Shown here: one piece after another, positions 29,895-58,869 of the stretch
How positions within the stretch are numbered: the stretch's first letter is position 1
Layout of the letters: the number at the start of each line of letters is the position of its first letter
Source of the DNA: an uncultured bacterium
GTDB taxonomy: Bacteria > Verrucomicrobiota > Kiritimatiellia > RFP12 > UBA1067
Assembly: GCA_902799955.1 (NCBI GenBank)
Contig: CADCCQ010000002.1
Coordinates: forward strand, 4,017 to 68,016
Direction: 5' to 3'
Length of the DNA stretch: 64,000 bases
Notes under the pieces: generated by a model
Told to the model about the DNA's origin: nothing
What the model saw: the letters and a program-made list of their open reading frames with translations, nothing else
The model's database searches: none
Program-made: the position numbers and the translations under genes

Positions 29895-31904
29895 TTAGGC
29901 CGCAGCCCCGTTGGACTTGACCATGCCGCGATGGTCCTGTTCGCGGATACCCACGTCGAAGTACACGCGGAACCAGATGCCGAGGACGTTGAAGTCGAGG
30001 TCCCCGCGCTCCACGGTCGGCGTGCGCTTCCCCTTGAGGTAGCCGATCTCGAAGGTGTCCACCGTGCCAGGCTTGCCGAAGAGGTACCACGCGGTCTCGC
30101 TCGCGCCGCCGTACTTCGCGTTCGAGAGGTACGGGCTGGAGACGATCTGGAGGTTCTGGTCGGCGAGGACGTTCAGCGTCGGGCGGATCGTCTGCTCGGC
30201 TCCGCCGGACATCATCAAGGCCGCGCCGCGAGTGAGCTCGACGGCGAGGAACTTGAGCGCGGTCGGGACGAGCAGAATGCTCGGCTCGACGTTCACGGGC
30301 TGGCCGTCCGCGTCCGTCTGGTCGAGGAACACCTTGATTGCCTTCTTGAGCGAGTCGGCGGAGAGTGCGGAGTTCGCACCGGAAAGAAGGTTCTTGTGGT
30401 TCGTCGAGAAGAGCGGCTTTCCGTCCACCATCGTCGGGTTCGCCATGAGACGCTCGAAGAAGAGCTGGTCGACGAGACGCGCGGCGCGGTTGCCCATCGC
30501 GGTCGGAACCTTGAGGAACGCACCGAGATCGTCGTTGATGATCATCTTGCGCGTCAGGCAGAACTTCTTGGCGTAGGTGTCGAGCTGGTTGACGGCCTTC
30601 TCCTCGGAGACGCCGCCGTCCTTGATCTCGCCGTCCGCGCCGACGGGCTTGAGGTCGCCGATGTCGGTCAGGCGGAAGCGCTGGTTCTCCTTGAAGTCGG
30701 AGAGGTCGGCGGACGTGCAGAGGCTCGTCGCGATGATAGGCTGCGCCCTGTACGCCTGCAGGAGCTTCTTCTGCGCGACGTTGGAGAGGATGCCGGGGAG
30801 CGAAACCGTCGAGAACGCGGCCTTGATGCTGGCGTTGTCGAAGGTGCGGGGGACGTTCATGCCCTCAAGCCTCATGCACTCCGCGAGGACGCCCTGTAGC
30901 GGGATGTCGCAGTCCTTCATCGCGGCCTCGACAGTCTCGTCGCCCATCTCCTTGGCCAGAGTGTCTCCGTCGATCCCTGCGCGGAGCGACAACGCCGCCT
31001 CCAGCGTCTTCTCGGTCATGCCGGACTTCTTCACCGTCACGGACGGAGGGGTGGTCGTGGGCTGCTTGGCGCGATACGCCTTGAGAACTTCCTCGTTCAC
31101 GCGGTTGCGGTCCCATCCCTCGGCGATTGCCTTTGCCTCGATCTCGGGGAACTCGCTGCCGCAGGCCACCTTGATCATCGTCACGCGGTCGCGCTCGGCC
31201 TTGACCGCCTCTGCCGCGATTGCCTTCGCGTCGGGCATCGGGTCGGCAGGCTTTTCGGGTGTCGCGGACGCGGTCACCGTCTTGGGGGTGTCCTTCGGCA
31301 CAGCCGCAGGCGTAGCCGGAGGGTTAGCGGGAGCCGCCGCCTCGACGGGCTTCGTCTCCTTGTTGGTCACTTCAGGTTCCATAATGGAGTTTCCTTTCAG
31401 TTGCAGTTGTGCCGTGACTGTCATGTGCGTCGAGCGGTCCGCGCCCACGGCGACTACGCTGACCTCCCGCAAAGTTGATTTCGTGACGTGGTAGAACGGA
31501 GCTTCGTGTTCCACTCCGTTGACCGTCCGCTTGCCTTCCTGTACAAGCTCGGCGGCTTCGACCTCCGCTCCGATTGAGAGCTGCCAGTCCGCGCCCGCCT
31601 TGCCCTGGGCGACTATCGCCTCGGCGAGCTCGCCTCCGGCCACGATGTCGCCCGAGATTGCGAGGTGTCCGTCCTCGACCTTCGCGTCGACCACGCCCAC
31701 GCGCCCAAGCGTGTGGTTCTCATGGTTGGCGAGTAGCGGCACGGACTCGGGGACGGTCATGCCGGATAGGTCGACGACCACCGGCTTCGACCATCCGAAG
31801 AGCCTCATCTTGCCGCCTCCGTAGGCGAGCCCCGCAACCTTGTGCTTTCCGTCTCCGCCGTCTTTCGCGGCGGTTATTTCGAGATATTCACTCGTCTTTT
31901 CCAT
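29895..31904 (-). CDS. fused prohead protease - scaffold-like linker - major capsid protein (669 aa)
   Basis: N-terminus LLANHENHTLGRVGVVDAKVEDGHL (HK97-type prohead protease). Ala/Pro/Lys-rich linker. C-terminal HK97-fold capsid-like region (...TAWYLFGKPGTVDTFEIGYLKG...). Confidence 0.65.
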   Translation of the reverse strand: MEKTSEYLEITAAKDGGDGKHKVAGLAYGGGKMRLFGWSKPVVVDLSGMTVPESVPLLANHENHTLGRVGVVDAKVEDGHLAISGDIVAGGELAEAIVAQGKAGADWQLSIGAEVEAAELVQEGKRTVNGVEHEAPFYHVTKSTLREVSVVAVGADRSTHMTVTAQLQLKGNSIMEPEVTNKETKPVEAAAPANPPATPAAVPKDTPKTVTASATPEKPADPMPDAKAIAAEAVKAERDRVTMIKVACGSEFPEIEAKAIAEGWDRNRVNEEVLKAYRAKQPTTTPPSVTVKKSGMTEKTLEAALSLRAGIDGDTLAKEMGDETVEAAMKDCDIPLQGVLAECMRLEGMNVPRTFDNASIKAAFSTVSLPGILSNVAQKKLLQAYRAQPIIATSLCTSADLSDFKENQRFRLTDIGDLKPVGADGEIKDGGVSEEKAVNQLDTYAKKFCLTRKMIINDDLGAFLKVPTAMGNRAARLVDQLFFERLMANPTMVDGKPLFSTNHKNLLSGANSALSADSLKKAIKVFLDQTDADGQPVNVEPSILLVPTALKFLAVELTRGAALMMSGGAEQTIRPTLNVLADQNLQIVSSPYLSNAKYGGASETAWYLFGKPGTVDTFEIGYLKGKRTPTVERGDLDFNVLGIWFRVYFDVGIREQDHRGMVKSNGAAA

Positions 31905-33312
31905 CTTCTTCTCCTTCTTCGTTTTGAGAATCGTCCTTTGTCGGAACATCGTCGATGCCGAGTTCCTTCATGAGCGTCCTTTCCTTGGCTATCTGCCGAA
32001 GCTCCGTCTCCCAGTCCTTGCCCTGGCGGGCATATTCCGCTGCGAGGGTCGTGGTCTTGTTCAGAAGCCTCTTCTCCTGCGCGTTCGCCTCCTTCGCGGG
32101 ATCGACGTGTTCCTGTCCGTCCCAGAACCACACATGGCGGCAGTCGCAGGAGTCCAGCTGCGTAGCCGTCGCCAGCGACCACTCGCGCATCCACGCCTCG
32201 AACACGCGGTCGAGTATCTCCGCCTCCATGAACGCGCGGTCGACCTTCAGCGATTTGTAGTACGTCTGGTGGTCGAGCCGCCCGCTCGCGTAGTTGTAGC
32301 CGGATGAGTTGCCCGCCGCGATGTTGTAGGGCATCGAAAGACACCTTGCGATCTCGTTCAGTATCTCGTGCTTGAACTCGCCGTATGTCGTGACGGGCTG
32401 CTTCGGATCGACCTGGCTCATCTTCCAGCCGCCGGGCATGGTGAGGAGCATGTTCCGCTCCAGCTGGATCGTGTCCATCGCCTCCACGCTGTCGGCCTCG
32501 CCGTTCGCCGGGGCGTCCGTGTACAGGATGCCAGCGAAGTCGGCAGCCGCCTCCGCAGCACTCACCACCGCCAGCGTGAACCGGCGGAGGTGTGCGAAAA
32601 GCGGCAGCGCGGCGGTTATCTCCGGGATGCCGCGATGCTGCTCCGGCCTGTCCTGGCGGAACACGTGGATCATGTTTTCCGCCTTGACGGTCAGGAACTC
32701 CGTGTTGAAGCTCTCCGTCCCGCCCGGATGGAACTTCAAAACCCTGTACGAGACGGGGTTCCCGAAAGAGTCGAACGTGATGCCGTCGACCCGCTTTTCG
32801 TCGCTGATCAAATCATCATCCGTAACCCGGTCGGCTTCGATGAGCTGCAGGTCGAGCCTCACGTTCGTTGTAAGCCTTGGGTTCTGGGCGAGCATGACAA
32901 ACGCCTCGCCGTCCTGGCACCGCGCCATCCTTATGGTGCGGAGCTTCGCGGGAAGCCTCGTCCTTTTCGCCCAGACCTGAAAATCGTGTTCTATGCGCTT
33001 GTTCACATCCTCGTCGTCGAGAAGCATCTGAAGCCTCGGCCCCGTTCCGACTGTGTCGTCTGCAAGCGTCTTCACAATGCCACGCGCATACGAGTTGTTC
33101 TGCACCTCGTAGCGGGCGCGGGTGCGGAGTATCTTGCGGACGTTCGAGTCCGCCTCCGCGTCTGCGGACAGGAAGTCCGCCGCGCCCCAGTGCTTCGCGT
33201 TGTCCTTCGTCGTCTGCGCGGCGTCGAAGCGGGCGCGCATCCAGCTCACGAACCTTCCGCCAATGCTCTTCCGGATTGGGGCGTCCTTCTTCTTCGATGG
33301 CCAAAGCTTCAC
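31888..33312 (-). CDS. portal protein, lambda family (474 aa)
   Basis: FDAAQTTKDNAKHWGAADFLSADAE...TRARYEVQNNSYARGIVKTLADDTVGTGPRLQ. GTG start in GTGA overlap with gpW. Confidence 0.85.
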   Translation of the reverse strand: MKLWPSKKKDAPIRKSIGGRFVSWMRARFDAAQTTKDNAKHWGAADFLSADAEADSNVRKILRTRARYEVQNNSYARGIVKTLADDTVGTGPRLQMLLDDEDVNKRIEHDFQVWAKRTRLPAKLRTIRMARCQDGEAFVMLAQNPRLTTNVRLDLQLIEADRVTDDDLISDEKRVDGITFDSFGNPVSYRVLKFHPGGTESFNTEFLTVKAENMIHVFRQDRPEQHRGIPEITAALPLFAHLRRFTLAVVSAAEAAADFAGILYTDAPANGEADSVEAMDTIQLERNMLLTMPGGWKMSQVDPKQPVTTYGEFKHEILNEIARCLSMPYNIAAGNSSGYNYASGRLDHQTYYKSLKVDRAFMEAEILDRVFEAWMREWSLATATQLDSCDCRHVWFWDGQEHVDPAKEANAQEKRLLNKTTTLAAEYARQGKDWETELRQIAKERTLMKELGIDDVPTKDDSQNEEGEEDGKDE

Positions 33313-33512
33313 AGCGCACCTCCCCCCGCCGCCATCTTCGTGATGCGACTCGGCAGCCGTTTGCCCTTGAGGGCGTCCTTCGATGCATAGTAGTTGAGGA
33401 GCTTGATGAGGTCAGCCGCCGAGTGGTTCTCCACGACCTGCCCGTCAACCTCCACCTTCTTGGGCGAGAGGAGGAGATTCTCCATTATCTTCTCGATCTT
33501 TGACTGATCCAT
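33309..33512 (-). CDS. gpW-like head-tail joining protein (67 aa)
   Basis: Size, position upstream of the portal, and the KKVEVDGQVVENHSAADLIKLLNY pattern resemble lambda gpW. Confidence 0.5.
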   Translation of the reverse strand: MDQSKIEKIMENLLLSPKKVEVDGQVVENHSAADLIKLLNYYASKDALKGKRLPSRITKMAAGGGAL

Positions 33513-34536
33513 AGTCCTGAAACTCCTTTCCCGCTTCCACGGCGGCGATCCTCTCGCCGACCCAGCGCATTACGTTGACGCACATCGAGTTCCCGCACAC
33601 TTTGTGGCGGAATCCGTCGGGCGCGTGTTCCTTGCCTTTCCACGGGATGTCCGTCCAACCGTCGGGAAAGCCCATCAGACGCTCCGATTCGACAGGCATA
33701 AGCCTGCGGAGCTGCGTCGGCGTGCAGACCGCATTGACGTGGCTTGAGCGGAGCGTGTACATCGCCGCACCCGCTTCGTCGTAGCACTTCGTCTTGAGGT
33801 TCTTCGTGCGCCCCTCGATGTTCATCATGTCTATGGGGAAGCACTCCCCCGAAGCACATTCTCCAGCGCCTTCGGAAGCAAATAGCCCAGTCGTTCTGCG
33901 CGGGCAAGCATCGCCTCCGCATAGTTCGCCGCCAAGCAGTACCTCTGCGGCGCGGGTCCAGTCTCCACGATGTCCGACAAGGATGACACGACGCCTTCGC
34001 TGCGGCACCGCCCCCGGAAATGAGGGAACTCTGGTATATCTCGCGTCCAGCACTCGCCACGAAACGCCGAAGCGTCCGGGGGCGTTGGTGACGATTCCCG
34101 CATGCCCCCATCCGCCGTCTGGGACTTGAACGTCCCATCCTGCGAACTCCGAGAGGATTCGGGCGAAGTCCCGTCCGTCTCCAATCGTAAGCACGGCTGG
34201 GACGTTCTCCCAAACCACCCAGCGGCAATGCGTCCGTTCAGCCAGCCGCGCAAACTCAAGCGCGAGGTTTCCTCGCGGATCGGCGATTCCGCCCTTGCTT
34301 CCGCCGCTTGAAAACGACTGGCAGGGCGACCCTCCGACAAGGAGGTCGATTCCGTTTCCATGGTCTCCCTCCTTGATCTTCGTGAAGTCGCCGAGGTTCG
34401 GCACCTCCGGCAGACGGTGTTTCAGCACTTCCGACGCGAACTCGTCGATTTCCGAGACGAATTCGCAACGCCAGCCGAGGGGCCGCCATGCGACCGAAGC
34501 GGCCTCAATCCCGCTGCACACGCTTCCGTATCGCAT
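33445..34536 (-). CDS. DNA (cytosine-5)-methyltransferase (363 aa)
   Basis: Motifs SVCSGIEAAS (I), GGSPCQSFS (IV), WENVP (VI), QRRRRVILVG (VIII), RRLMPVESERLMGFPDGWT (IX), GNSMCVNV (X). ATG at 34536 with GGAAGGAGGG SD. Confidence 0.85.
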   Translation of the reverse strand: MRYGSVCSGIEAASVAWRPLGWRCEFVSEIDEFASEVLKHRLPEVPNLGDFTKIKEGDHGNGIDLLVGGSPCQSFSSGGSKGGIADPRGNLALEFARLAERTHCRWVVWENVPAVLTIGDGRDFARILSEFAGWDVQVPDGGWGHAGIVTNAPGRFGVSWRVLDARYTRVPSFPGAVPQRRRRVILVGHRGDWTRAAEVLLGGELCGGDACPRRTTGLFASEGAGECASGECFPIDMMNIEGRTKNLKTKCYDEAGAAMYTLRSSHVNAVCTPTQLRRLMPVESERLMGFPDGWTDIPWKGKEHAPDGFRHKVCGNSMCVNVMRWVGERIAAVEAGKEFQDYGSVKDREDNGESPPLAQEGGG

Positions 34537-34604
34537 GGCGGCTCCCTCCTTCCCGGCCTTTATCCTCTTCGCACAATGGGGAATACATGGCATCCCCTCA
34601 CTCT

Positions 34605-34633
34605 CTTATACGACATCAGGTACACCGTTTTAA
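34605..34633 (-). promoter_or_regulatory. second promoter type, copy A (upstream of the methylase inserted in the head module)
   Basis: Minus strand: TTAAAA (34633-34628), 17-nt spacer, TATAAG (34610-34605). A roughly 35-nt block is near-identical to 50221-50255. Confidence 0.5.
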
Positions 34634-34656
34634 CAACATTTCTTCATGAAGTTTCC

Positions 34657-36936
34657 TCATCCCTTGAGCCGCCTCAGTTCAGACAGTTTTACCTTTGGCT
34701 TCGCTGCCGCACGCGGTTTTCCGTCCGTCATCGTCCCCGCAAGCACGCAGCCGGACATCGACGCGGCGACCGCAGACCCGACTATGCAGTCCCACCAGTG
34801 GTTGTCGTGTGCGTCCGGGCGCATCTTCCACTCGTCCACACGGCGTCCGCGTCCCTCGGTCTTGACCCTGTACTCCGCCGTCAAGTGTTCGGCAAAGAGC
34901 AGATGGTCTTCAGCAGAGCGTCCCCAGAGGGTGATTGCCCCACGGTCGCCCGTCGCCGTGAGAAGCCTCGTCGCCACAAACGACTTCCAGAAGTTGGTGT
35001 CGTACACGACGTGCCTCACTGCCCGCTTGCCACGGACGTTCGGCATCCGCCAGTTCATCCCGACCCTGTCGCCGACCGCTTTCTTGTACTCGCCCATAGG
35101 CTTCGACGATGCACCGATGTAGCGGCCATGCGACGGCGTAAGGACGGATGCGTACTCCGACTCTCGACAGAACTGGTACACGGTGTCCGTGGACTGTCCC
35201 CAGTTCGCATCAACGAGACAGCGCTCAATTCGCATCGCCGCGCCGTCGTCGCGGAAGTATTCTCGCCCGAGGATCTCGCCGGTCAGCTTCTTGAGACCTT
35301 CGGAAAGACATCCTTCGAGGCCGTTTCTCGGAAACTTCATCTGAAGCGTGATGTTCGCGTCCGAGAGCGTGAAGAACCGCCTGTTCTGGTCGGGCCACTC
35401 ACCATAGTCTATGACGCGCCCCGTGAAGTCGTCGTCCCATGCGGCGATGACATAGAAAAGCATCGTCTTCTGAACGTCGATGAACGCCGTGAGGTGCGTC
35501 GCCGAGACGGGCACGCCAAGCCGCGAGTGTCCATTGACCCGCGAGGAAACGCCGTCCAGCGTCAGCTGCTCCTCAGTCCCCAAGTCCTCCGCAAGCGGCT
35601 CGTTCTGATACTCCGCCCAGAACGCGGCCTCGTCGGTGAGCTTCAGGTCCATCGCGTGCTGAACCGCCGAAATCTCGTCGTGGTTGAACCTTGCCTTCCA
35701 CGCGACCACAGCTCCCTCGTCCATCTCCCTCTGGTGGGCGCGGTAGAATTCGGTCGCCTTGAGGAACGTGCCTTTCTCGCGCAGTTCGTCAGCGCGGAGG
35801 TCGGCATACTTGTTCCACAATTCCTCGTTCTTCGGGAACTTGTACATCATCCGGCAACGCTCGCCGTTCCACTCGGGGTGCTTCGAGCGGTCGAGCATCT
35901 GCTCGGCCATGTCTCCTGGGCGTATGACGGTGCATGGCATTACGCCCGCGATTTTCCGCCCCGGACCCGCAAGGCCGAGAACGTCGCCCGCCAGCACACG
36001 CACACGCTTCCTTGTCTGCTCCGCCGATCCCGCCGACTCGCTCGTCTGCGGGTCATCGACGATGACGAACTCGGGACGGATCGTCCGCCCGTCGGGGCGC
36101 TTGAACTTCATGCCGCGAATGCGCCCCGTGATGCCGGCGACGCGGACGATTGCGCCGCTGGACGCCGCACCCGCTATCGTGGGGAGGACGATTTCGCTTG
36201 CCGTCCAGCCGATGCGCGTCCTCTCGCCCTTGTAGAGCTGGCCCGCGCAGCGGTTGGCTATTCCCTCAAGGCGGGCTATCGGATACACCATCTCCGGGAA
36301 GTCCTCGGCGAGGTGTTCGTTCACCTCAAGTTCCGTCTTGATGGAGTCGAGCATCTCAAGGGCGGCACCTTCGCTTGCGCCGATTACAACGATGAACTCG
36401 CGATGTCCATAGGCCATTGCCCATATCGCCGCCGTCTCTGTGAGAGAGGATTTGCCGGAGCCACGCGCCATTGCGAGGGCGAAGAGTCCGCCTTCGAGAA
36501 CGGCCTTCTGAAGTTTCTCTATAGCCCGCAGATGGTCGTCCGACCATTCGAGATTGTACACTTCCGGGAAGTAGGTCTCGCAGAACTTCCTGAAGTCAAA
36601 GCGGCACGCCTCCTTCCTTTCGGGATCGACAACGGCGGGAAGCTCGCCGATGTCGCGCCCCGCAAGTGAAAGCTCCGACTGCCGCTGCGCGGCGGACTCC
36701 CGGTGCGCGTCGTAGCCTCCAGGTGTCGAGGCAGGCGTGTTAGCCCGCTTGTCGATGAGCCACGCCGCGTAGCGGTAGAAGCTCAACGAGCGGCTGTCCT
36801 CCGTCGATGCGATGCGGTATCCGGCCTCCGCGAAGTGGCGGTACACCATCGCGGCAGAGATGACCGTCCCTAGCTCCGTGGAGTTGAGGAAGCGCACCAT
36901 TTCCACGGGCTTCATCTTCTTAACGTTGACCGTCAT
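34657..36936 (-). CDS. terminase large subunit (759 aa)
   Basis: Walker A region ALAMARGSGKSS. C-terminal nuclease-like region. Lies upstream of gpW and the portal. Confidence 0.85.
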   Translation of the reverse strand: MTVNVKKMKPVEMVRFLNSTELGTVISAAMVYRHFAEAGYRIASTEDSRSLSFYRYAAWLIDKRANTPASTPGGYDAHRESAAQRQSELSLAGRDIGELPAVVDPERKEACRFDFRKFCETYFPEVYNLEWSDDHLRAIEKLQKAVLEGGLFALAMARGSGKSSLTETAAIWAMAYGHREFIVVIGASEGAALEMLDSIKTELEVNEHLAEDFPEMVYPIARLEGIANRCAGQLYKGERTRIGWTASEIVLPTIAGAASSGAIVRVAGITGRIRGMKFKRPDGRTIRPEFVIVDDPQTSESAGSAEQTRKRVRVLAGDVLGLAGPGRKIAGVMPCTVIRPGDMAEQMLDRSKHPEWNGERCRMMYKFPKNEELWNKYADLRADELREKGTFLKATEFYRAHQREMDEGAVVAWKARFNHDEISAVQHAMDLKLTDEAAFWAEYQNEPLAEDLGTEEQLTLDGVSSRVNGHSRLGVPVSATHLTAFIDVQKTMLFYVIAAWDDDFTGRVIDYGEWPDQNRRFFTLSDANITLQMKFPRNGLEGCLSEGLKKLTGEILGREYFRDDGAAMRIERCLVDANWGQSTDTVYQFCRESEYASVLTPSHGRYIGASSKPMGEYKKAVGDRVGMNWRMPNVRGKRAVRHVVYDTNFWKSFVATRLLTATGDRGAITLWGRSAEDHLLFAEHLTAEYRVKTEGRGRRVDEWKMRPDAHDNHWWDCIVGSAVAASMSGCVLAGTMTDGKPRAAAKPKVKLSELRRLKG

Positions 36937-37120
36937 CGCCCATCTCCTTTGCGACCCACGCGATGTACTTCAGGATGTTGATCGTCCCGTCCGCGTTGAC
37001 GGGCGCACCCGAGGCGATGTCCGCCTCAAGCCTCTCCAGCGTAAGGGTCCTCGACCCCGACCGCCGCATGGCGGTCACGAAGTTCTCCTTCGATACGTGT
37101 TCGCGGTTGTTTTCGGGCAT
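36920..37120 (-). CDS. putative small terminase / HTH DNA-packaging protein (66 aa)
   Basis: Overlaps the terminase large-subunit start by 17 nt. AAAGGAGG SD. The call rests on position only. Confidence 0.4.
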   Translation of the reverse strand: MPENNREHVSKENFVTAMRRSGSRTLTLERLEADIASGAPVNADGTINILKYIAWVAKEMGDDGQR

Positions 37121-37259
37121 TTCAAGCCTCCTTTGAAGATCGTTTTAAGATTGGTGAAAATAGTTGGCAAACCCCGCTTGACTATTCCCGGACATAGAGC
37201 GAATATATCCGCCGTCCTGCCCGTGGTGGGCTGGACGCAGAAACAGAAAGGACAGATGC

Positions 37260-37745
37260 ATGAGCAAGTCGGCAATCCGCGCGGGCGACCGCGCATTCGT
37301 AAAGGTGGGGCGCAACCTCGTCGAGGTTCGCGTAGACGGCAAGGCGGAGAGCGGATGGAACGTCACCTCCCGCACCGGGAAGTCCATGACGGTCAAGACG
37401 CTCCTCACCGCCGAGGGCGACACCCTCGCGGCACACGAGGCGGAAGCCCCGGCATCCGCGAAGGCCGAGGCGAAGGCGAAGCCTGCCGCGCCCTCGCCGA
37501 AGGCCGTTCCCCCAAAGGGTCTCGGACTCCTCAGCGCGGCTGCGGCGGTGCTGGAGCGGTCAGACGCCCCCATGTCGGTCAAGGCGATGATCGAGGCGGC
37601 GAAGTCGGAGGGGCTTTGGACGCCCAAAGGCGGCAAGACCCCCGAACAGACGCTCTACTCCGCGATCATCCGCGAGATACGCGACAAGGGGAACGCCTCC
37701 CGATTTCGCAAGGAAGGACGCGGTCTCTTCGCGTTCGCGCAGTAG
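37260..37745 (+). CDS. HARE-HTH (winged-helix) domain protein (161 aa)
   Basis: C-terminus LLSAAAAVLERSDAPMSVKAMIEAAKSEGLWTPKGGKTPEQTLYSAIIREIRDKGNASRFRKEGRGLFAF. It is the lone plus-strand gene here, convergent on metK with a 2-nt gap. Confidence 0.6.
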   Translation: MSKSAIRAGDRAFVKVGRNLVEVRVDGKAESGWNVTSRTGKSMTVKTLLTAEGDTLAAHEAEAPASAKAEAKAKPAAPSPKAVPPKGLGLLSAAAAVLERSDAPMSVKAMIEAAKSEGLWTPKGGKTPEQTLYSAIIREIRDKGNASRFRKEGRGLFAFAQ

Positions 37746-37747
37746 CC

Positions 37748-38773
37748 TCACGCCTCGTACCCGAAAAGTCCGCGTCGGCACATCTCTGCGTACACGGGCT
37801 TGTCGAGTCCGAGGCTCTCTATCACGTGGCTCGCAGGCTCCGACTCCGTGTACGCCTCGACGATGCGGTTCTCGCCGTCCAAGAGCGTCACGCGGATGTC
37901 GCGGCGGCCGATGCAGCAGGAAATCATGCACTGCATGGACGGAAGCCCGTAACGCTTCATAGCCTCCAGAGCCTTGTGCCGGGCATAGACGTTCAAGGTG
38001 ACATCGGCCTTTGTCGGGTCTTTGCCCCAAGGACAGCCCCCGCCGATCCTTGAGTTCCCGCCGTAGAAGTCCACGACGAGCTTCCTGCCGGTCGTTCCGC
38101 AGTCGGCGACGGAACCATGTGCGACATAGCGGCCGGTGCCGTTCACGACGATGGCGCACTCTTCGCCCACTATCGACTTCGCCGTCTCAATGACCGACGC
38201 CTCGTCGTCGCCGGGGGCAAGAGGGATCGCGATGACACACTCTACGGGCTTTCCGTCCTCAAGCGTAACCTGCGTCTTGACGTCCAGTCCGCCGCTCACG
38301 CCCGCAATCGCCTGTCCGAGCTTGCGGGCAAGCCAGTAGTCCTTCGGCATGTAGCCGTACTTCGGCTCGTCCACTGCGTAGCCGAACACCAATCCTTGGT
38401 CGCCCCAAGAATCGCGGTCGACACCCTGCGATATGTCCTGCGACTGGCGGGAGATGTGCGTTTCGACCTCCACCTCCTCGGCGCAGATGGTGTTCGCATC
38501 GCCGAAGCGGTCCTGGTACTCGTCGTTGTAGCCGATCTTGTCGATGGCCTCACGCGCGAAGTCTGCGATGTCCTCTTCGCCGTAGGGGGCGTTCGAGGTG
38601 ATTTCGCCGGAAATCGTGCAGTAGCGTTCCTTGAGCTGCACCTCCAGGGCGACGCGAGATCGGCGGTCGGCCTCAAGGTACTTGTCGAGGATGTACGATG
38701 CGATGAAGTCGCACGTCCTGTCGGGATGACCGACGGTGCAGTATTCCGATGTCTGGATTCTGGTAGGTTTCAT
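37748..38773 (-). CDS. metK: S-adenosylmethionine synthetase-like protein (divergent MetK, 341 aa)
   Basis: TSEYCTVGHPDRTCDFIAS, QSQDISQGVDR...GDQGLVFGYA and GGGCPWGKDPTKAD align with canonical MetK motifs. Confidence 0.75.
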   Translation of the reverse strand: MKPTRIQTSEYCTVGHPDRTCDFIASYILDKYLEADRRSRVALEVQLKERYCTISGEITSNAPYGEEDIADFAREAIDKIGYNDEYQDRFGDANTICAEEVEVETHISRQSQDISQGVDRDSWGDQGLVFGYAVDEPKYGYMPKDYWLARKLGQAIAGVSGGLDVKTQVTLEDGKPVECVIAIPLAPGDDEASVIETAKSIVGEECAIVVNGTGRYVAHGSVADCGTTGRKLVVDFYGGNSRIGGGCPWGKDPTKADVTLNVYARHKALEAMKRYGLPSMQCMISCCIGRRDIRVTLLDGENRIVEAYTESEPASHVIESLGLDKPVYAEMCRRGLFGYEA

Positions 38774-39046
38774 TGATGGGTTTCTCCTGTTAGGTTTCGA
38801 CTGCTCTCAATAGTAGTTTAGGATCGTGTGCGAGAGCGACACAGGATCCACGGTATCTATAGTGCTCTCCGGAGTCTATCTTCGTGTGACGTCACGAAAT
38901 GCGGCGACTATCGGCGGATTTTCGCCGAATATCGCCGGATTTCGCCGCTATCGGAGTGTGTTTCCATACTGGTATATAGTGTCGTCGGACGTTCAACACG
39001 CACGTAGACACGCACTATACACGCCACGGAAGCACACTTTTGATAG

Positions 39047-39694
39047 TCACGAATTAGTCACGAGACCCTCGCAGATGCGGACGATGTGGCGGCACAGCTC
39101 GTCGGGCAGTTTCGCACGGACGGCCTTGCCTTTCAGCCCCTGCGTACCCGTCCTCGATCCGCGTGGCGCGGCGTCGTGGCACGGTGCGCCCCGCTTGCAG
39201 GGCTGACGGAACTGCGGGTCGGGGTGGTTCGAGAAGATGTCCGTCGGCTTCTGCCGCCTCTCGCCGTACTGGCAGTATGTCACCGTGTGCCGGCGTCCGC
39301 CGGTGTCGCGCAGGAGGTCGAGGATGAACGGCATCTTCCGCAGCATCCCCACCGGATTCTCGATGAACCACACCTTCGGCTTCAGCTGTCGGATGAGGTC
39401 GCAGACATGGGCATTGACGGCGTCGCATCTCGCGGCGTATTCCGTCTTCGGCCTCGTCCCGTCGCGGTGGCGAGAGATGCACATGACCGAGTACGTCGTG
39501 CAGTCAGGACTCGCCCAGACGACGTCGGGGCGTCCGAACCGTCCGACGATCTCATCGGCGGTCAGCATCCCGATGTCCGCATTCCAGTCGGGCTTGTGTT
39601 CCTCGCTCCAGTCCACGGTAAGCGTCCTGTGGCCGTGCCCCCTGAACGCGGCTGACAGGACGCCCGTCCCGGAGAAGAGTTCAAGCACCCTCAT
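39047..39694 (-). CDS. small DNA (cytosine-5)-methyltransferase-like protein (215 aa)
   Basis: LELFSGTGVLS (motif I), ASPDCTTYS (IV-like), FIENPVG (VI-like), RAKLPDELCRHIV C-terminus. Confidence 0.65.
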   Translation of the reverse strand: MRVLELFSGTGVLSAAFRGHGHRTLTVDWSEEHKPDWNADIGMLTADEIVGRFGRPDVVWASPDCTTYSVMCISRHRDGTRPKTEYAARCDAVNAHVCDLIRQLKPKVWFIENPVGMLRKMPFILDLLRDTGGRRHTVTYCQYGERRQKPTDIFSNHPDPQFRQPCKRGAPCHDAAPRGSRTGTQGLKGKAVRAKLPDELCRHIVRICEGLVTNS

Positions 39695-40973
39695 GTGTGC
39701 TTTCTCCCGCATCCGGCGCTGGTGACGTGTCAGATGACGTATCAGGATTTGACGGTGTGCCGTCAAGTTTCGGTGTCAGCTGCTCCCAGTCGCATCCCTC
39801 GCCATGCACGAACTCCGCCCAGCGCTTCCTGATTACGTCGCAGTACTTCGGGTCGAGTTCGACGCACCTGCACACACGCCCCGACCTCTCGCAGGCAATC
39901 AGCGTCGAGCCGCTGCCGCCGAAGGTGTCGAGGACGATGCCGCCACGTTTCGACGAGTTGCCGATGAGATAGACAAGCATCTCGACGGGCTTCATCGTCG
40001 GGTGCAGGTCGTTCTTCTTCGGCTTGTTGAACTCCATGACCGTCGTCTGCTTGCAGTCGGAGTACCAGTCGTGAGCACCACCGTCGCGCCAACCATAGAG
40101 GCAAGGCTCGTGAATCCACTTGTAGTCCTGCCGTCCGAGGACGAGCGAGTTCTTCTTCCACACGAGGCACTGGCGGACTTTCAATCCCACGTCGTAGCAC
40201 GCTCCACGGAAGTTGTAGCCCTCCGAGTCGGCGTGGAAGATGTAGAACGAACCGCCCGGCTTCAGGCACTTCTCCGCGCAGCCGAACGCCGTGCGCAGAA
40301 ACTCGCGGAACTTCGTGTCCTCCATCGAGTCGTTCTGTATCGACTGCCCGTCGCTCCCGTGGTAGTCCACGTTGTACGGCGGATCGGTGAGCCAGAGGTC
40401 TGCCTCGTCGTGGGCGCACACCTTCGCAACGTCGTTGGGCTTCGTCGAGTCGCCGCAGACGAGGAGGTGCTTGCCGAGGACGTACACCTCGCCGGGCGTC
40501 GAGACGGGAATATCCGGCGTCTCGGGGACTGCATCCGGCTCAGTCTCGCCATGCGTCCCCGCCTCGCCGCCAAGGAGGTCGTCCAGCTCGTCGTCGCCGA
40601 ACGCGAGAAGCGAGAGGTCGAAACCAGCCTCCTGCAACGCGGCCAACTCGACCTTTAGCTTGTCCTCGTCCCACTCGGCGATTTCCGCGATCTTGTTGTC
40701 CGCGATGCGGAGAGCCTGCTCCTGTTCCGGCGTGAGGTCGGTCGCTATGATGCACGGCATCGTCTCCCAGCCGAGCTTCTTCACCGCGAGGAGGCGCGTG
40801 TGTCCCTCGATGATGACCTTGTCCTTGTTGAGGACGGCGGGGTTTCTGAAGCCGAACTGTTCGATAATCCTGGCGAGCTGTTCGACCGCGCCCTCGTTGA
40901 CGCGGGGGTTGTTCTCGTAGGGAACTATCTCCGACACGGGGACGTTCACCACCTTGATTTTATTCGTTTCCAT
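39681..40973 (-). CDS. ParB-like nuclease domain fused to an N6/N4 DNA methyltransferase (430 aa)
   Basis: N-terminus IVPYENNPRVN...IIEGHTRLLA (ParB/Srx fold). LWLTDPPYNV (motif IV). VLDTFGGSGSTLIACE (motif I). Confidence 0.85.
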   Translation of the reverse strand: METNKIKVVNVPVSEIVPYENNPRVNEGAVEQLARIIEQFGFRNPAVLNKDKVIIEGHTRLLAVKKLGWETMPCIIATDLTPEQEQALRIADNKIAEIAEWDEDKLKVELAALQEAGFDLSLLAFGDDELDDLLGGEAGTHGETEPDAVPETPDIPVSTPGEVYVLGKHLLVCGDSTKPNDVAKVCAHDEADLWLTDPPYNVDYHGSDGQSIQNDSMEDTKFREFLRTAFGCAEKCLKPGGSFYIFHADSEGYNFRGACYDVGLKVRQCLVWKKNSLVLGRQDYKWIHEPCLYGWRDGGAHDWYSDCKQTTVMEFNKPKKNDLHPTMKPVEMLVYLIGNSSKRGGIVLDTFGGSGSTLIACERSGRVCRCVELDPKYCDVIRKRWAEFVHGEGCDWEQLTPKLDGTPSNPDTSSDTSPAPDAGESTHEGA

Positions 40974-43080
40974 CTGTGTTCTCCTGTTCGTGTTCCTTGT
41001 CGTAGTTCTGGATTCGCTGGCATATCCAGCGGGCGCAGTTGACCGCCCAGCCGTTGCCCAGAGCCTTGTACCTCGGCGTATCGGGACATTCCTCGGCGCT
41101 CTTTCCGCGATGCGGAATCTTCGTGTATCCGTCGGGCAGCCCCTGGAGCCGTTCGCATTCGAGCGGAGTAAGCCGGCGGACGATGTAGTCAACCGCAACC
41201 GCCGGAAGGTTGTCGCCCATCTTCGCCCGCAGCGTGGACGTCACCTCGTCGCCAAAGCGGTTGTCCGCGCCCTCGCGCTTGGCGAGCCCCGGCTCGAACG
41301 ACACAGCGCCGGGGCCTTTCGAGATGACCGTAGGCGCACACTCCTCCTCGACCTTGAATCCGAACTGCGCGTTCTTGCCTTGATTGAATGAGGCGCGGTC
41401 AAGTCCAATTGCGACGCCGCACTTGTGGTTTTTCGCAAGCGGCGAACTCACCTCCGGCTTGGGGCTGTCCTCGTGCGTCCCCGCCTCGGCGTTGAAGCCG
41501 ATGGCGACGGCGTGCGGGTCTGTGCCGTGGAGCGCGAGGATCGTCGGCGAGACGCCGGACGTGTCAGCCCGACCGCTCGACTTCCCGGCCTCCATGTCGA
41601 AAACGCCGATGCACTCGGTAGCCACCGCGACCTTGTTTCCGCTCTCACCCTGCGTCTTGACGAGCGTAGGCGCGACTTCCTCTTCCGCGCCCAGCCCCTG
41701 TGCCTTCGCGGAGTTGCCGGGCAGGAACGCCACGACCGCCGTGCCGCCCTGATGCTTCACGGGGGCTGAATCCACAGTCGTCAGCGTCGGGGCGCACTCG
41801 ACCTCGCGGCATCCCGAATGGGGATTCTTCGACTTCATCGCGTTCGACCCCATCGAGTCGATGGCGTAGGCAACCGCGTGCTGGTCTCTCGCCGTGAGCG
41901 TGTAGGACGCGCCTTTCTCCGAGACGCCGAATCCCGCGCCACCCTTGCGGACGGGCTTGTCGGCATTCGTCGGCTTGTTCTTGTCCATGTCGATGGCCAC
42001 GACACCGTCCGCCGGTGTGACCACGAGCGGGTTGTTGTTCGCCGCCTGCGCATTATGCGTTGCGCCCATAGTCGGCGCTACCTCGACTTCGCTCGTCCTC
42101 GCATCCGTCTGGTGGTTCTCGAAGCAGACGGCGTTGTGGAAGCCGGGCGACGATCCGTTCACCAGCGCACCGCTTACCTCGCGGTTTTCAGACTTCACTC
42201 CGCCCGGCTCGTATGGGTCGAAGCCGGACGGCTGCATTACGAACACCCCCGACTTGTCGGCCTGCCCCGTGAGACGTTTCGTCAGGTCGGTGGCGTTCAG
42301 GGTCGGCATCACGTTGCCGCCGTTTGCGTTCGTTGGAACCGGGCGATCTGCGCCTTGAGCGCCGCCGCCAATCTCGCGGGTAAATCCTTGCCCCGTGACG
42401 CGGCACGGCGGAGTATCCCCGCGCACGCCTTGAGGCTCAAACAGTATTTCCGCAGGTGCTCGCCAACCGTCTCCAGTATGTCCGAGAGTCCGCATACCGA
42501 CGAGCCAAACCCTGCGTCGCCGCTGGGGGACTGCGCGGGGCAGCCCGTCCACTCGCACGTATTGAGCGTCCAGAGTCCTGTAGGCAAGAGCATACCCGCA
42601 TTCCCCAATCGAGCGGACGAAGTGCGCGAAGTCCCGCCCTCCGTTGCTGGTGAGAACTCCCGGCACGTTCTCCCATACGACCCATCGAGGTTGTAGCTCA
42701 CGACAAAGTCGCGCAAAGTGGAAGGCAAGGGAGCTGCGGGTTCCGCTGCCTTCCGCCATGCCCGCCCGCTTTCCGGCGACCGACACGTCCTGGCACGGCG
42801 TCCCGCCGGCGAGGACGTCGAGACGCCCGGCAAGTTCAATGACATCTGTTCCATTCGTTATCCTCCATTTCTCGTCGCCGACCATCTCGGCTGTTATTGT
42901 CGTCATGTCCCCGAGGTTGGGGACGTCGGGGTAGCGGTGTGCCAGGAGCGAGCACGGGAACGGCTCGATCTCGCTGAAGAACACCGGCTTCCACCCGCCC
43001 AGCGGCTTCACCGCCGCGCTCATGCACTCTATCCCGCTGCATACCGTCGCATAGGTCAATTCCCTTGCTTTTGTTGGCAT
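40960..43080 (-). CDS. DNA (cytosine-5)-methyltransferase with expanded repeat region (706 aa)
   Basis: TVCSGIECMS (I), GGTPCQDVS (IV), WENVPG (VI), QRRRRVWLVG (VIII), about nine x-P-T-[LIMV] units (res 259-617), RRLTPLECERLQGLPDGYT (IX), GNGWAVN (X). Confidence 0.85.
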   Translation of the reverse strand: MPTKARELTYATVCSGIECMSAAVKPLGGWKPVFFSEIEPFPCSLLAHRYPDVPNLGDMTTITAEMVGDEKWRITNGTDVIELAGRLDVLAGGTPCQDVSVAGKRAGMAEGSGTRSSLAFHFARLCRELQPRWVVWENVPGVLTSNGGRDFAHFVRSIGECGYALAYRTLDAQYVRVDGLPRAVPQRRRRVWLVGMRTLGHTGDGWRAPAEILFEPQGVRGDTPPCRVTGQGFTREIGGGAQGADRPVPTNANGGNVMPTLNATDLTKRLTGQADKSGVFVMQPSGFDPYEPGGVKSENREVSGALVNGSSPGFHNAVCFENHQTDARTSEVEVAPTMGATHNAQAANNNPLVVTPADGVVAIDMDKNKPTNADKPVRKGGAGFGVSEKGASYTLTARDQHAVAYAIDSMGSNAMKSKNPHSGCREVECAPTLTTVDSAPVKHQGGTAVVAFLPGNSAKAQGLGAEEEVAPTLVKTQGESGNKVAVATECIGVFDMEAGKSSGRADTSGVSPTILALHGTDPHAVAIGFNAEAGTHEDSPKPEVSSPLAKNHKCGVAIGLDRASFNQGKNAQFGFKVEEECAPTVISKGPGAVSFEPGLAKREGADNRFGDEVTSTLRAKMGDNLPAVAVDYIVRRLTPLECERLQGLPDGYTKIPHRGKSAEECPDTPRYKALGNGWAVNCARWICQRIQNYDKEHEQENTDGNE

Positions 43081-43243
43081 TTTCGGCCTCCTTGAAAAAT
43101 TACGTCAGTGAAAGAAAGTCTGCCCTGGAGCCGCGCTCCTTCCCGCGCCCTGCCTTTGAGAGGGGGTAGGGGAGGAACCGTGGCCTCGGCGGGACATATC
43201 GTCCCACCCGCCCGAGGCGGGTCATTTTTCCGCCCGTGGGCCG

Positions 43244-43273
43244 TTGACTTGTCCTCGCCGGTTATGGCATAAT
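43244..43273 (+). promoter_or_regulatory. sigma70-like promoter candidate with no downstream ORF
   Basis: TTGACT (43244-43249), 18-nt spacer, TGgCATAAT (43265-43273). Points into the palindrome array at 43394-43580. Confidence 0.35.
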
Positions 43274-43393
43274 GTCCCGCGTCGGCCGCTTCGGGTGCTT
43301 TTGGGTTTCGTCGCCCAACGGTTTTCGTTTCCCGCAGCGGCCGATTTTCCCTCCACTCCCGAAACAGGCGATTTTGCGCTTGGGCGGACACGG

Positions 43394-43580
43394 ATTAGTT
43401 TTGATTTTTCTGCGCCCCTAAAGGGAGCGCAAAAAAACAAAACTAAATCAACCCGTTTCCGCCCTGGCCGGAATTAGTTTTTTGTTTTGTTTTTCCTAGG
43501 CAAAACAAAACTAATCTCGACCCCGGAACGACGCCGGAATTAGTTTTGCTTTTTGTTTTTTCACGCGAAGAAAAACTAAT
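43394..43580. repeat. three long A/T-rich inverted repeats bounded by ATTAGTTTT / AAAACTAAT (candidate replication origin or operator array)
   Basis: Forward ATTAGTTTT at 43394, 43473 and 43539. Reverse AAAACTAA(A)T ending at 43448, 43515 and 43580. Each pair encloses a T-run, a centre and an A-run. Confidence 0.7.
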
Positions 43581-49287: not shown

Positions 49288-50112
49288 CTACACGTCGAGA
49301 ATACGCATATCCTCCGTGCGCGTAGGCCAGACGTTCTCGCGGCGGCACTTGCGGAGTTCCGCAATCGCACGCTCGTTCTCAAGGGCGCAAGCCTCAAGTA
49401 TGCCGTCGGTGAGCTTCCACACGCCGCAGCGCATCGGCTCGCGCTTCTCGACTGCGATGAGGTAGCAGTCGGCGACGACCTCGCCCTCGCTTGCGGTGCA
49501 CAAGACCTCGCGGTAGAACGCCATCTGCTGCGGATAGCCGAAACGCCGCGCGTCGCCCTCGAAGTAGTCGAGCGTCTCGCAGGTCTTAAGGTCGCAGATG
49601 ACCGGGCGTCCATCGTAGTCTGCGCGGAACCAGTCCATGCGTATCTGGCATGGCTCGTCGCAGTAGTGTGTGCGAACGGTCTGCTCGGCGACGCCGTCGT
49701 CCAGCAGCTCGCGGGCGACGGGATGCGCCCACACGCTCTCGCGGAGCTTCGACATGAAGGCGAAGTCGGGACCGCCCACGACGTCCTTCGTCTGCGCCGC
49801 CGCCCACTCCTTGTACGCCTTCGTGAGCTTCCCGAACGGCTCGCCGGTCTTCGGGTTGACCGGCCCGTCGCTCACCATGAACTCCTCGTCGAACTTCGAG
49901 CGTCCCTCAAGAACAAGGGTATGGACGGCGCGTCCGACTGCAAGCGCAGTCGACTCCGTAGGCTCGATCTCGCCGTTCATCTTCTTCTTGTAGAGAAGAG
50001 GCGACTTCCTGAAATCGCCGAGCAGATGGCTGGAGAGGAACTTCCCGTCCCTCGCCGCCTGATGGTACTCGTCGGACGGCACGTCCGCAAAGAATGGTAG
50101 GCTGTTTTTCAT
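49288..50112 (-). CDS. PD-(D/E)XK nuclease (phage exonuclease, Cas4/RecB-like fold), 274 aa
   Basis: AVGRAVHTLVLEG, ICDLKTCE (D-x-K) and GYPQQMAFY motifs. First gene of the leftward early operon. Confidence 0.7.
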   Translation of the reverse strand: MKNSLPFFADVPSDEYHQAARDGKFLSSHLLGDFRKSPLLYKKKMNGEIEPTESTALAVGRAVHTLVLEGRSKFDEEFMVSDGPVNPKTGEPFGKLTKAYKEWAAAQTKDVVGGPDFAFMSKLRESVWAHPVARELLDDGVAEQTVRTHYCDEPCQIRMDWFRADYDGRPVICDLKTCETLDYFEGDARRFGYPQQMAFYREVLCTASEGEVVADCYLIAVEKREPMRCGVWKLTDGILEACALENERAIAELRKCRRENVWPTRTEDMRILDV

Positions 50113-50225
50113 TGTCTTCCTTTCTGTGAGGTGAAAAAGAGCGAGACATGGCGGCGCGGAAAGTATGGAATCATTACGAAACCGACAATGGAATCAAAGG
50201 CGACGCCATGTCTCGTCCCCACTCT

Positions 50226-50254
50226 CTTATACGACAAACGGTACACGGTTTTAA
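50226..50254 (-). promoter_or_regulatory. second promoter type, copy B (early leftward promoter)
   Basis: TTAAAA (50254-50249), 17-nt spacer, TATAAG (50231-50226). The block 50221-50255 is near-identical to 34600-34634. Confidence 0.5.
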
Positions 50255-50377
50255 CGGACAATTTTCTGGAATCGAAGGTCGGCGGACTCCCACCCAGATT
50301 CATCGACAACCTGCTCCTCCCTAGCCGCAGCATCCCGGCGAAACACCTGCTACTTTGTTGAAATATGAAATACTACA

Positions 50378-51451: not shown

Positions 51452-51457
51452 GGCAGC

Positions 51458-54000: not shown

Positions 54001-54002
54001 TC

Positions 54003-58489: not shown

Positions 58490-58516
58490 CCGATCCACGT
58501 CATCCAATGCTTCCTG

Positions 58517-58858: not shown

Positions 58859-58869
58859 TCGATGGAATT

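Follow-up and report, generated by a model that had tools for sequence, protein, structure and literature searches.

Introduction

To our knowledge, the multispecific DNA methylases characterized so far have two to about five specificities each, and we know of no structure for any of them. Those of Bacillus phages, namely M.SPRI, M.Phi3TI, M.Rho11sI, M.H2I and M.phiBssHII, combine one C5-cytosine (C5) methylase core with an enlarged region between motifs VIII and IX that houses tandem target recognition domains (TRDs), each with a T-[LIV] hallmark, and they are described as phage-borne orphans with a presumed anti-restriction function (PMC8936443 with its references 45 and 56-59), M.SPRI being reported as triple-specific (reference 57 there). 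Here, we describe a locus at 33.4-43.1 kb of a 64,000-nucleotide stretch of DNA from an uncultured bacterium (contig CADCCQ010000002.1 of assembly GCA_902799955.1, positions 4,017 to 68,016; the whole stretch is referred to as the window), in which a C5 methylase with about ten TRD-like modules (M3) is encoded together with a methylase with a putative ParB fusion (ParB-methylase), a small C5-like methylase (M2), a compact MetK-like protein, a HARE-HTH protein and, among the packaging genes, another C5 methylase (M1). We read this locus, with a probability of roughly 60%, as the self-methylation (anti-restriction) module of a temperate lambda-like prophage, in which the compact MetK would supply S-adenosylmethionine (SAM) and M3 would be multispecific.

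Viral metK genes have been regarded as auxiliary genes, and genomes that carry dcm in addition to metK are on record (bioRxiv 10.1101/2021.01.05.425418). Of the Ca. Heliusvirales genomes, 67% have a C5 methylase gene and 58.9% a gene for SAM synthetase (PMC11283538), and a truncated prophage MetK affected aggregation and biofilm in Streptococcus agalactiae (PMC8223999). The viral proteins described (PHROG 1569, Streptococcus prophage, Ca. Heliusvirales) are about 340-370 amino acids (aa) long, keep the substrate-binding motifs and are often encoded on genomes that also encode C5 methylases (10.1101/2021.01.05.425418; PMC11283538; PMC8223999). The HARE-HTH domain (PF05066) is known from ASXL, HB1, fusions with restriction enzymes and the delta subunit of Firmicutes RNA polymerase; it has been predicted to read modified DNA, a prediction that derives from its neighbourhood of DNA-modification genes, and the ASXL1 domain bound N6-methyladenine (6mA) DNA in pull-downs (PMC6591016), whereas the role as reader and its target have been disputed (PMC11037411).

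Results

M3 is a C5 methylase with a tandem array of TRD-like modules

M3 matched PF00145 with 122.3 bits (cut-off 22) and TIGR00675 above its cut-off, the PF00145 match being split between residues 13-198 and the C-terminus, and its motifs GTPCQ, ENVPG, QRRRR, RRLTPLECERLQGLPD and GNG are those of a C5 methylase. The core is divided in the same way, residues 1-190 holding motifs I-VIII and residues 635-690 motifs IX-X, and the variable region between motifs VIII and IX comprises 449 aa as compared to 220 aa in M.SPRI and 98 aa in M1. Ten copies of a hallmark, typically E-V/C-A/S-P-T-L/M/I/V, were found in this region at a spacing of 32-57 residues (Table 1), with the hallmark threonines at residues 260, 337, 394, 432, 472, 513, 584 and 616 and degenerate copies at 301-306 and 543-548. 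Seven hallmarks fit a strict regular expression and three are degenerate (EVSGAL, EVSSPL, ECAPTV); in the shuffle test, 5 occurrences of the strict pattern were counted as compared to 0.002 in shuffled sequences. The last hallmark lies 19 residues ahead of motif IX, a place comparable to that of the T250-L251 dipeptide in M.HhaI, in which the alignment places motif IX at about residue 270.

For calibration, the hallmark expression was applied to M.SPRI (GenBank K02124), in which it counted exactly 3 hallmarks as compared to 7 in M3 and 5-12 in 120 close homologs of M3. Moreover, BLAST aligned the M3 array with the TRD regions of M.Rho11sI and M.H2I in hallmark-to-hallmark register, with E = 0.003 in a single pairwise comparison and 26% identity over 129 residues. 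The close homologs share 59-99% identity with M3, range from 626 to 816 aa and include several proteins named 'DNA cytosine methyltransferase [Kiritimatiellae bacterium]'. Their differences in length correspond to whole modules, seen either as deletions of residues 283-315, 451-487, 525-555 or 559-588 or as insertions of 29-48 residues, each of which adds a new hallmark ('EVAATLG', 'EVAETRNTF', 'EVSGTLAAR'). Module types of M3 are also seen in a Lentisphaerae prophage enzyme of 566 aa and in an enzyme of a Clostridium phage (Ca. Heliusvirales), and one pair of modules corresponds to the terminal TRD of a 486-aa Vibrio-phage methylase.

Multispecific methylases are marked by an enlarged variable region and by several contiguous, separable TRD modules of about 40-50 aa with the T-[LIV] hallmark, and both features are seen in M3. 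Judged by its sequence, M3 carries the defining features of the tandem-TRD enzymes at two to three times the known number of modules, and it appears to be a multispecific enzyme, predicted to methylate several different sequences. It differs from M.SPRI in that seven strict and three degenerate hallmarks occupy 449 aa instead of three in 220 aa, with homologs reaching 11-12, and from the Bacillus-phage enzymes in general by a host of the Planctomycetes-Verrucomicrobia-Chlamydiae (PVC) group rather than of the Firmicutes and by a TRD-region identity of about 25%. The original prediction, made from the nucleotide sequence of the window, had counted four methyltransferases in the locus; the four genes are present, but in view of the roughly ten TRD modules of M3 this count understates the likely number of specificities.

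One homolog of M3 (P0100, 1150 aa) has 335 inserted residues directly behind the catalytic Pro-Cys of motif IV, and this insertion contains domains of inteins and homing endonucleases (PF14528, PF13403).

A compact MetK-like protein is encoded directly downstream of a methylase

The MetK-like protein matched the MetK domains PF00438, PF02772 and PF02773 above their cut-offs, its best match in the Protein Data Bank (PDB) was a MetK (1e-36), and PHROG 1569 ('unknown function') covered it in full length (2e-70). Its score against TIGR01034 was 170.3 bits and lies below the equivalog cut-off of 309.4, which agrees with the proposal that the phage has a divergent SAM synthetase of its own. The protein belongs to a distinct compact clade, the closest relatives forming several tens of clusters at 50% identity with lengths of 340-375 aa, and compared to Escherichia coli MetK it is shortened within the central domain and by about 25 residues at the C-terminus. 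The motifs GHPD, Glu42, GEIT, the gating loop QS.DI..GV, GDQG, D.K, GDCG.TGRK and GKDP.K.D are kept, and this list is the one used for viral MetK (10.1101/2021.01.05.425418). Residues were read from alignments with MetK structures in the PDB and with the sequence of E. coli MetK, which were consistent with each other; present are His14, Asp16, Glu42, Glu55, Gln98, Asp118 and Lys165 as well as Asp238, Arg244, Lys245, Lys265, Lys269 and Asp271 (E. coli numbering). The MetK-like protein is, as far as its residues tell, probably an active methionine adenosyltransferase. The defence database PADLOC returned nothing for it.

Conservation was analyzed by comparing the window proteins via tblastn with ten related loci (L008-L017). 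The MetK gene is intact in all ten, with 57-90% identity, and it lies directly downstream of a methylase in each of them. This fixed place across the whole lineage is what our data contribute, and the window gene differs from the viral metK genes described before by its position, which in 10 of 10 loci is next to the terminase on its upstream side, with the ParB-methylase and the convergent HARE-HTH gene as neighbours on either side. MetK relatives are encoded in 130 deposited phage records at an identity of no more than 40%. A distant parallel was found in a Clostridium phage of Ca. Heliusvirales, in which a MetK-like gene, a ParB-type methylase and a 640-aa C5 methylase lie within 5 kb.

Two side observations concern relatives of this protein. 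In the Clostridium phage NatCom_42228 (PV036444.1, our locus L001, locus coordinates 4546-5595) a gene deposited as 'peptidase' is a MetK homolog by tblastn (35% identity over query residues 2-273), and the same label is used in three further records (series PV036427, PV036428, PV036445). Furthermore, P0254, P0256, P0259, P0263 and P0269 are among the relatives of the compact MetK that have 660-730 aa and split matches, which suggests inteins.

Upstream of the MetK gene lies a non-coding leader (Table 1) with an inverted repeat, CGGCG-N26-36-CGCCG (about 38895-38945), a CACACGATCC box and the pair GTGTGC...GAAACACAC, all of which are conserved across the related loci. Searches against Rfam returned nothing in the window at the gathering threshold and nothing in nine related loci, at E <= 1 the region of 33-44 kb gave microRNA matches at chance level only, and RNAalifold applied to nine MetK leaders found an invariant 5-bp stem and no covariation. 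A SAM riboswitch or another known RNA in the leader was rejected on these grounds. In most relatives, but not in the window, a GCCCC-loop-GGGGC hairpin precedes the ribosome-binding site of the MetK gene.

Recognition sites are avoided in the phage part of the window

Sites were counted in the phage part (window 1-50300, 50.3 kb) and in the host flank (59126-64000, 4.9 kb). The phage part contains no CCGCGG as compared to 60.3 expected, no CCCGGG as compared to 10.2 expected, and a single GGCGCC, whereas 2 CCGCGG, 1 CCCGGG and 5 GGCGCC are present in the much shorter host flank. Observed-to-expected ratios in the phage part were about 0.5 for GGCC and CCGG and 0.14 for CTAG. Moreover, CCGCGG occurs 0-3 times per 15-21 kb in related phage loci as compared to 5-12 times in unrelated loci (L008-L017 being included in this comparison). 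The absence of CCGCGG points to strong restriction pressure on the phage, and site avoidance alongside methylation supports an anti-restriction role of the methylases.

The same part of the window holds 1,451 GC-only 4-bp palindromes of four kinds, equal to about 2,900 cytosines per genome copy, and 19,171 A+T base pairs, each of which contributes one adenine when both strands are counted. The SAM pool of a bacterium is estimated at about 10^5 molecules and a burst at about 100 genome copies, at which, with many target motifs, the demand for methyl groups would be of the order of this pool or above it.

ParB-methylase, M2 and M1

Transcribed in the same direction, M3 and the ParB-methylase overlap by 14 nt, as do the ParB-methylase and M2. 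No endonuclease was found among the open reading frames (ORFs) of the three genes, and in the absence of an accompanying endonuclease gene M3, the ParB-methylase and M2 are orphan methylases of one operon.

The ParB-methylase matched PF01555 with 92.6 bits (cut-off 26.7) and PHROG 498 in full length (1e-160). For the putative ParB_N domain at its N-terminus the Pfam score was 20.8 bits (cut-off 26.3), PHROG 620 (ParB-like) matched with 6e-53, the ortholog in L013 reached 27.0 bits, and PDB matches to Noc span residues 2-94 of the window protein. The motif LTDPPYNVDY at about residue 195 precedes FGGSGST at about residue 345, which is the order of beta-class methylases, and the DPPY motif suggests that the enzyme makes N6-methyladenine. 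The full-length match and the succession of DPPY and FxGxG are shared with the ParB_N-fused beta-class methylases of PHROG 498. The non-specific M.EcoGII has 349 aa, and the paper describing it contains no mention of ParB (PMC5778455). The window protein had a match in all ten related loci at 66-90% identity.

M2, for which the gene caller preferred an alternative start at 39712 (221 aa), scored 20.6 bits against PF00145, below the cut-off of 22 and spanning only the N-terminal 116 profile positions. Its assignment to the C5 fold is supported by other evidence: PHROG 757 ('DNA methyltransferase') matched with 1e-35, and in a Foldseek search of the PDB with the AlphaFold2 (AF2) model (predicted local distance difference test, pLDDT, 69; predicted template modelling score, pTM, 0.74) the 32 best matches were all of the C5-methylase fold with probability 1.0, at modest query-normalized TM-scores (TMq) of 0.37-0.54, headed by M.HaeIII, DNMT1, M.HhaI, Dnmt2 and DNMT3B. 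Additionally, the motifs FSGTG, SPDC (with P-D-C instead of P-C), ENP and QYGERRQ are invariant in 24 homologs. M2 has no sizeable TRD and is best described as a minimal C5-methylase-like protein; sequence searches of the PDB gave no match, and PADLOC gave weak matches to Type II methylases and nothing more.

M1 matched PF00145 with 132.6 bits (cut-off 22) and TIGR00675 above its cut-off. As in M3, motifs I (FxGxG-like), IV (PCQ), VI (ENV), VIII (QxRxR), IX and X follow one another in its sequence; M1 has a single TRD hallmark, and its alignment with M.HhaI covers motifs I-VI and IX-X. Wherever a related locus extends to the slot between the large terminase subunit (TerL) and the portal, a C5 methylase occupies it, the ORF varying from 363 aa (window and L009) to 455 aa (L013) and 566 aa (L016). 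This shows M1 to be a stable feature of the lineage; a recent insertion was ruled out by the same occupation of the slot. Upstream of M1, a 61-nt repeat (D4) is 75% identical to a stretch 5' of the gene that opens the leftward replication operon. A 36-nt pattern derived from it, spanning a TATAAG box and the Shine-Dalgarno-like sequence GAGAGTG(A/G)GGG, had just two matches as compared to 0 in shuffled sequences, so that the early-promoter copy proposed for M1 is real as a repeat, its promoter activity being putative. The repeat supports expression of M1 with the early genes despite its position in the late region.

A HARE-HTH protein is encoded convergently with MetK

The HARE-HTH protein matched PF05066 with 48.3 bits (cut-off 25.9) over residues 92-158, and two orthologs scored 48.4 and 39.3 bits. 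It consists of an N-terminal region, a basic linker rich in Lys, Ala and Pro, and the C-terminal domain, whose 70 residues hardly change within the lineage. The N-terminal part is less uniform: the window protein and its closest relatives have a conserved region followed by the linker, and in the Lentisphaerae locus it is essentially the basic linker only. Relatives at E <= 0.001 number 735, and NCBIfam, PHROG and PADLOC gave no match and the PDB sequence search nothing meaningful. The window protein is stand-alone with its basic linker, whereas the known ones have an acidic tail or an enzymatic fusion.

All ten related loci show the gene in convergent orientation to MetK and in divergent orientation to the terminase genes. 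In the window no other gene of the block was called on the plus strand, the stop codon of the HARE-HTH gene (TAG, 37743-37745) and that of MetK (37748-37750) are separated by 2 nt, and no terminator-like site was found at this junction, all as the original prediction had described it. Possible roles are those of a regulator acting via convergent transcription into metK, of an accessory factor at cos or of a modification reader; for the proposed reading of methylated DNA, evidence beyond the domain-level prediction (PMC6591016; PMC11037411) was not found.

The order of the core genes is conserved in related loci

Wherever the contigs of the ten related loci reach, the order of ParB-methylase, MetK, convergent HARE-HTH gene, candidate small terminase subunit (TerS), TerL, C5 methylase, small ORF and portal is kept. 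M3 and M2 are accessory genes, present in five and three of the ten loci, respectively. The candidate TerS ORF lies directly 5' of TerL in the related loci with 47-88% identity, and neither Pfam nor PHROG gave a match for it.

All six genes of the original prediction were found where it had placed them, and its family calls were reproduced, save that the Pfam score of M2 is sub-threshold and its assignment relies on PHROG 757 and the fold search. Of the two C5 methylases that were called large, M3 with its 706 aa deserves the name, but M1 with 363 aa is of ordinary size. The proposed lambda-like succession of terminase, gpW and portal was borne out for a GpA-type TerL and a lambda-type portal, but not for gpW: the small ORF between M1 and the portal is conserved in related loci and agrees with gpW in position and size, whereas Pfam and PHROG gave no match and BLAST gave no alignment to lambda gpW, which leaves a positional label. 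The statement that a methylase interrupts this order suggests a recent insertion and is better put differently, given the C5 methylase in every related slot that the contigs reach.

The locus lies in an integrated prophage

Nearly all real genes at 33.4-43.1 kb are on the minus strand (Table 1). At the right end of the window the element is flanked by a large serine recombinase, a tRNA cluster and host genes, from which it follows that it is an integrated prophage; a free phage or plasmid was ruled out by the same flanking features. The prophage is probably temperate and lambda-like, with a member of the Kiritimatiellae, a rumen bacterium, as its probable host. The exact MetK protein was found on 13 contigs from metagenomes, of which several belong to rumen assemblies and one measures 107.8 kb. 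Where homologs of M3, M2 or the HARE-HTH protein bear a name, it is that of a Kiritimatiellae protein, and the related loci come from metagenome-assembled genomes (MAGs) of Kiritimatiellae, Lentisphaerae and Verrucomicrobia, with a few in MAGs labelled Firmicutes. A megablast comparison of the 9.9-kb region with 50,697 phage records gave no match, that is, no close relative among the deposited records.

Table 1. Positions of the methylation locus genes and of surrounding features in the window.
Feature	Position	Strand	Remarks
Prim-Pol/AAA_25 replicase	ends 43576	-	first in transcription order
M3, C5 methylase, 706 aa	40960-43080	-	PF00145, TIGR00675
M3 TRD array, residues 225-632 (408 aa)	41185-42408	-	about ten modules of 30-57 aa, hallmark E-x-[ASC]-x-T-[LMIV]
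ParB_N-N6/N4 methylase, 430 aa	39681-40973	-	PF01555, PHROG 498
M2, small C5-like methylase, 215 aa	39047-39694	-	PHROG 757
Non-coding leader 5' of MetK, 273 nt	38774-39046	-	
MetK-like methionine adenosyltransferase, 341 aa	37748-38773	-	PF00438, PF02772, PF02773
HARE-HTH protein, 161 aa	37260-37745	+	PF05066
Candidate TerS, 66-aa ORF overlapping TerL start	36920-37120	-	position only
TerL, GpA (lambda) type, 759 aa	34657-36936	-	PF20454 85.9 bits, PHROG 38, PHROG 15
Promoter-like element upstream of M1	34599-34634	-	36-nt pattern
M1, C5 methylase, 363 aa	33445-34536	-	PF00145; between TerL and portal
Small ORF in gpW position, 58 aa (67 aa from upstream ATG)	33309-33485	-	position
Portal, 474 aa	31888-33312	-	PF05136 Phage_portal_2 (source-contig gene table)
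Promoter-like element, second copy	50220-50255	-	upstream of DUF3799 exonuclease gene (49288-50112), first of leftward replication operon
Low-GC island, Lamassu-type defence	50675-54680		about 50% GC vs 62%; at lysogeny end of prophage
DUF2924 protein and large serine recombinase	56.3-58.1 kb (prophage end 56297-59125)		recombinase 56815-58110
tRNA-Phe, tRNA-Lys, tRNA-Gly genes	58870-59125		between recombinase and host genes

Further features of the prophage were observed outside the methylation genes. The Lamassu genes of the low-GC island, at 50.7-54.0 kb, encode an LmuA-like protein (1e-13; Pfam CTD7 of ABC-3C systems) and LmuB (6e-93; DUF3732), and a 225-aa ORF without family assignment follows LmuB. 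The cellular genes beyond the tRNA cluster include a sigma-54 activator and an epimerase. In an ORF of 684 aa (29895-31949) the major capsid protein appears to be fused to a head-maturation protease or a scaffold; the ORF matches Phage_capsid_4 and, faintly, Mu-like gpT, and a cement/decoration protein is next in the gene table of the source contig. In the gap of 495 nt between the replicase and M3 (43081-43575) there are two AT-rich direct repeats of 43 nt each (43467-43509 and 43533-43575), a long hairpin (43381-43464) with weak, chance-level matches to microRNA precursors, and a plus-strand sigma-70-like site (43244-43273, 10 of 12 positions); the gap could be an origin or a regulatory region.

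Discussion

The components of this locus are each of a known kind, i.e., orphan phage methylases, viral metK and multispecific C5 methylases. The sequence data establish the gene identities, the module architecture, the conserved gene order and the site avoidance, whereas enzymatic activities, the number of specificities, the time of expression and the tie between MetK and methylation are deduced. As a self-methylation module the components would act together as follows. During lytic growth the ParB-methylase, a beta-class enzyme, would be expressed and would presumably introduce N6-methyladenine, and M1, with its place between TerL and the portal and its own copy of the early-operon leader, would act before packaging. 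Two accessory C5 methylases would be added in the window phage, the minimal M2 and M3 with one core and about ten modules, the latter working in the manner of the multispecific methylases of the Bacillus phages SPR, phi3T, rho11s and H2. The compact MetK would make SAM locally, allowing methylation to keep up with the rate of replication to about 100 copies, freed from the limit of the host SAM pool, and the conserved HARE-HTH protein, transcribed convergently into MetK, may be a DNA-binding partner. That MetK feeds phage methylation fits the retained motifs, the adjacency to a methylase in 10 of 10 loci and the restriction pressure; the supply role put forward in the original prediction is plausible in view of the same three observations, but it is already in the literature at the level of annotation and is not new.

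Several observations weigh against this reading. The AF2 model of M3, built from a 33-sequence alignment, is unusable (mean pLDDT 34.7, residues 201-706 all below 50) and gives no indication of how every one of ten modules could get to the active site. The hallmark is degenerate in three of its ten copies (GAL, SPL, PTV), some modules may be inactive, and one TRD may span two hallmarks, in which case the module count overstates the specificities. MetK falls far short of the equivalog score, and its leader with conserved elements parts it from the methylase operon, which may mean separate regulation. The strong site avoidance shows that the phage does not rely on methylation alone, and more SAM could also help SAM-dependent host restriction such as Type I systems or BREX (bacteriophage exclusion). 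The points on M3 would be accommodated if its modules formed one large or repetitive DNA-binding region or were mostly decayed pseudo-domains, with one or two specificities or a relaxed one; the locus would then hold four ordinary methylases. Inactive pseudo-TRDs are known in Bacillus-phage enzymes, the Vibrio-phage enzyme has two adjacent hallmark units in the position of its terminal TRD, so that a TRD could span more than one unit, and AF2 gave a confident fold for none of the modules. Among relatives with more than 75% identity, however, modules are gained and lost singly with conserved flanks, each module keeps the T-[LIV] hallmark at TRD-like spacing, the regular expression that describes them counts exactly the three known TRDs of M.SPRI, and across 33 homologs the majority of the modules that are kept show little or no variation, which speaks for selection on them. 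We consider ordinary or relaxed specificity of M3 a real chance, but clearly the smaller one, and keep to the multispecific reading.

The other alternatives concern what methylation and SAM are for. Viral metK has been catalogued as an organosulfur auxiliary gene (10.1101/2021.01.05.425418), the truncated MetK of the S. agalactiae prophage had its effect on aggregation and biofilm (PMC8223999), and the window gene has a leader of its own, all of which would suit an auxiliary metabolic or lysogenic-conversion gene for host methionine, organosulfur, polyamine or quorum-signal metabolism. We find this unlikely: in 10 of 10 loci MetK is on the strand of the lytic genes, between methylase and terminase and outside the lysogeny/moron region, which is where the low-GC Lamassu island sits, and the unrelated Clostridium phage likewise has its metK paired with genes for a ParB-methylase and a large C5 enzyme. 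Dam methylation licenses the pac site of phage P1, and methylation might here serve phage DNA transactions as well, e.g., as a cos recognition signal or packaging licence whose state the HARE-HTH protein reads beside the terminase genes. The methylation genes are indeed interleaved with packaging genes in conserved order, the candidate TerS with only 66 aa might need an accessory DNA-binding protein, and the HARE-HTH domain is a predicted reader with 6mA-DNA binding in ASXL1 pull-downs (PMC6591016), but the reader role is disputed (PMC11037411). In the 139-bp intergenic region between the HARE-HTH and TerS genes no evident cluster of candidate methylation motifs was seen, and the accessory, variable M3 and M2 together with site avoidance fit anti-restriction better, which makes a packaging function slightly less probable still. 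Least likely of all, in our view, is a counter-defence role, in which the phage MetK would replace or bypass host MetK when SAM is depleted by a host system or by a competing phage, e.g., one with a SAM lyase of the T3 type that also inhibits MetK. We know of no SAM-depleting defence or competitor for the host of the window phage. SAM cleavage and MetK inhibition are documented for phage T3 (10.1101/2023.02.27.530186), and a distinct compact clade such as the phage-type MetK could escape inhibitors of the host enzyme; evidence for the proposed countering of SAM depletion was not found, however. The features of the locus point to no such defence or competitor, and the conserved linkage to methylases is explained by simple supply.

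Returning to the self-methylation module, a bolder form of it can be formulated, although we hold it only tentatively and with the odds against it: M3 and its relatives of 626-816 aa would be natural TRD arrays in which one core carries 7-12 active, independently exchangeable cassettes that protect at least seven unrelated motifs, as compared to the three to five specificities of the Bacillus-phage enzymes, the cassettes being shared among phages of Kiritimatiellae, Lentisphaerae, Firmicutes and Vibrio, and MetK would be there to meet the demand for SAM. If most M3 modules are active, M3 would be the most multispecific DNA methylase so far, and it would offer a modular scaffold for alternative recognition domains on one core and a source of new 5-methylcytosine (m5C) specificities, of use in enzymology and as epigenetic tools. 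The linkage of MetK and methylases provides a testable reason for the presence of metK in so many gut and rumen phages, which would be cofactor supply as opposed to the label 'organosulfur metabolism'. Moreover, the convergent MetK/HARE-HTH pair beside the terminase is a clean system for asking whether a HARE-HTH domain from a bacterium or phage reads DNA modification.

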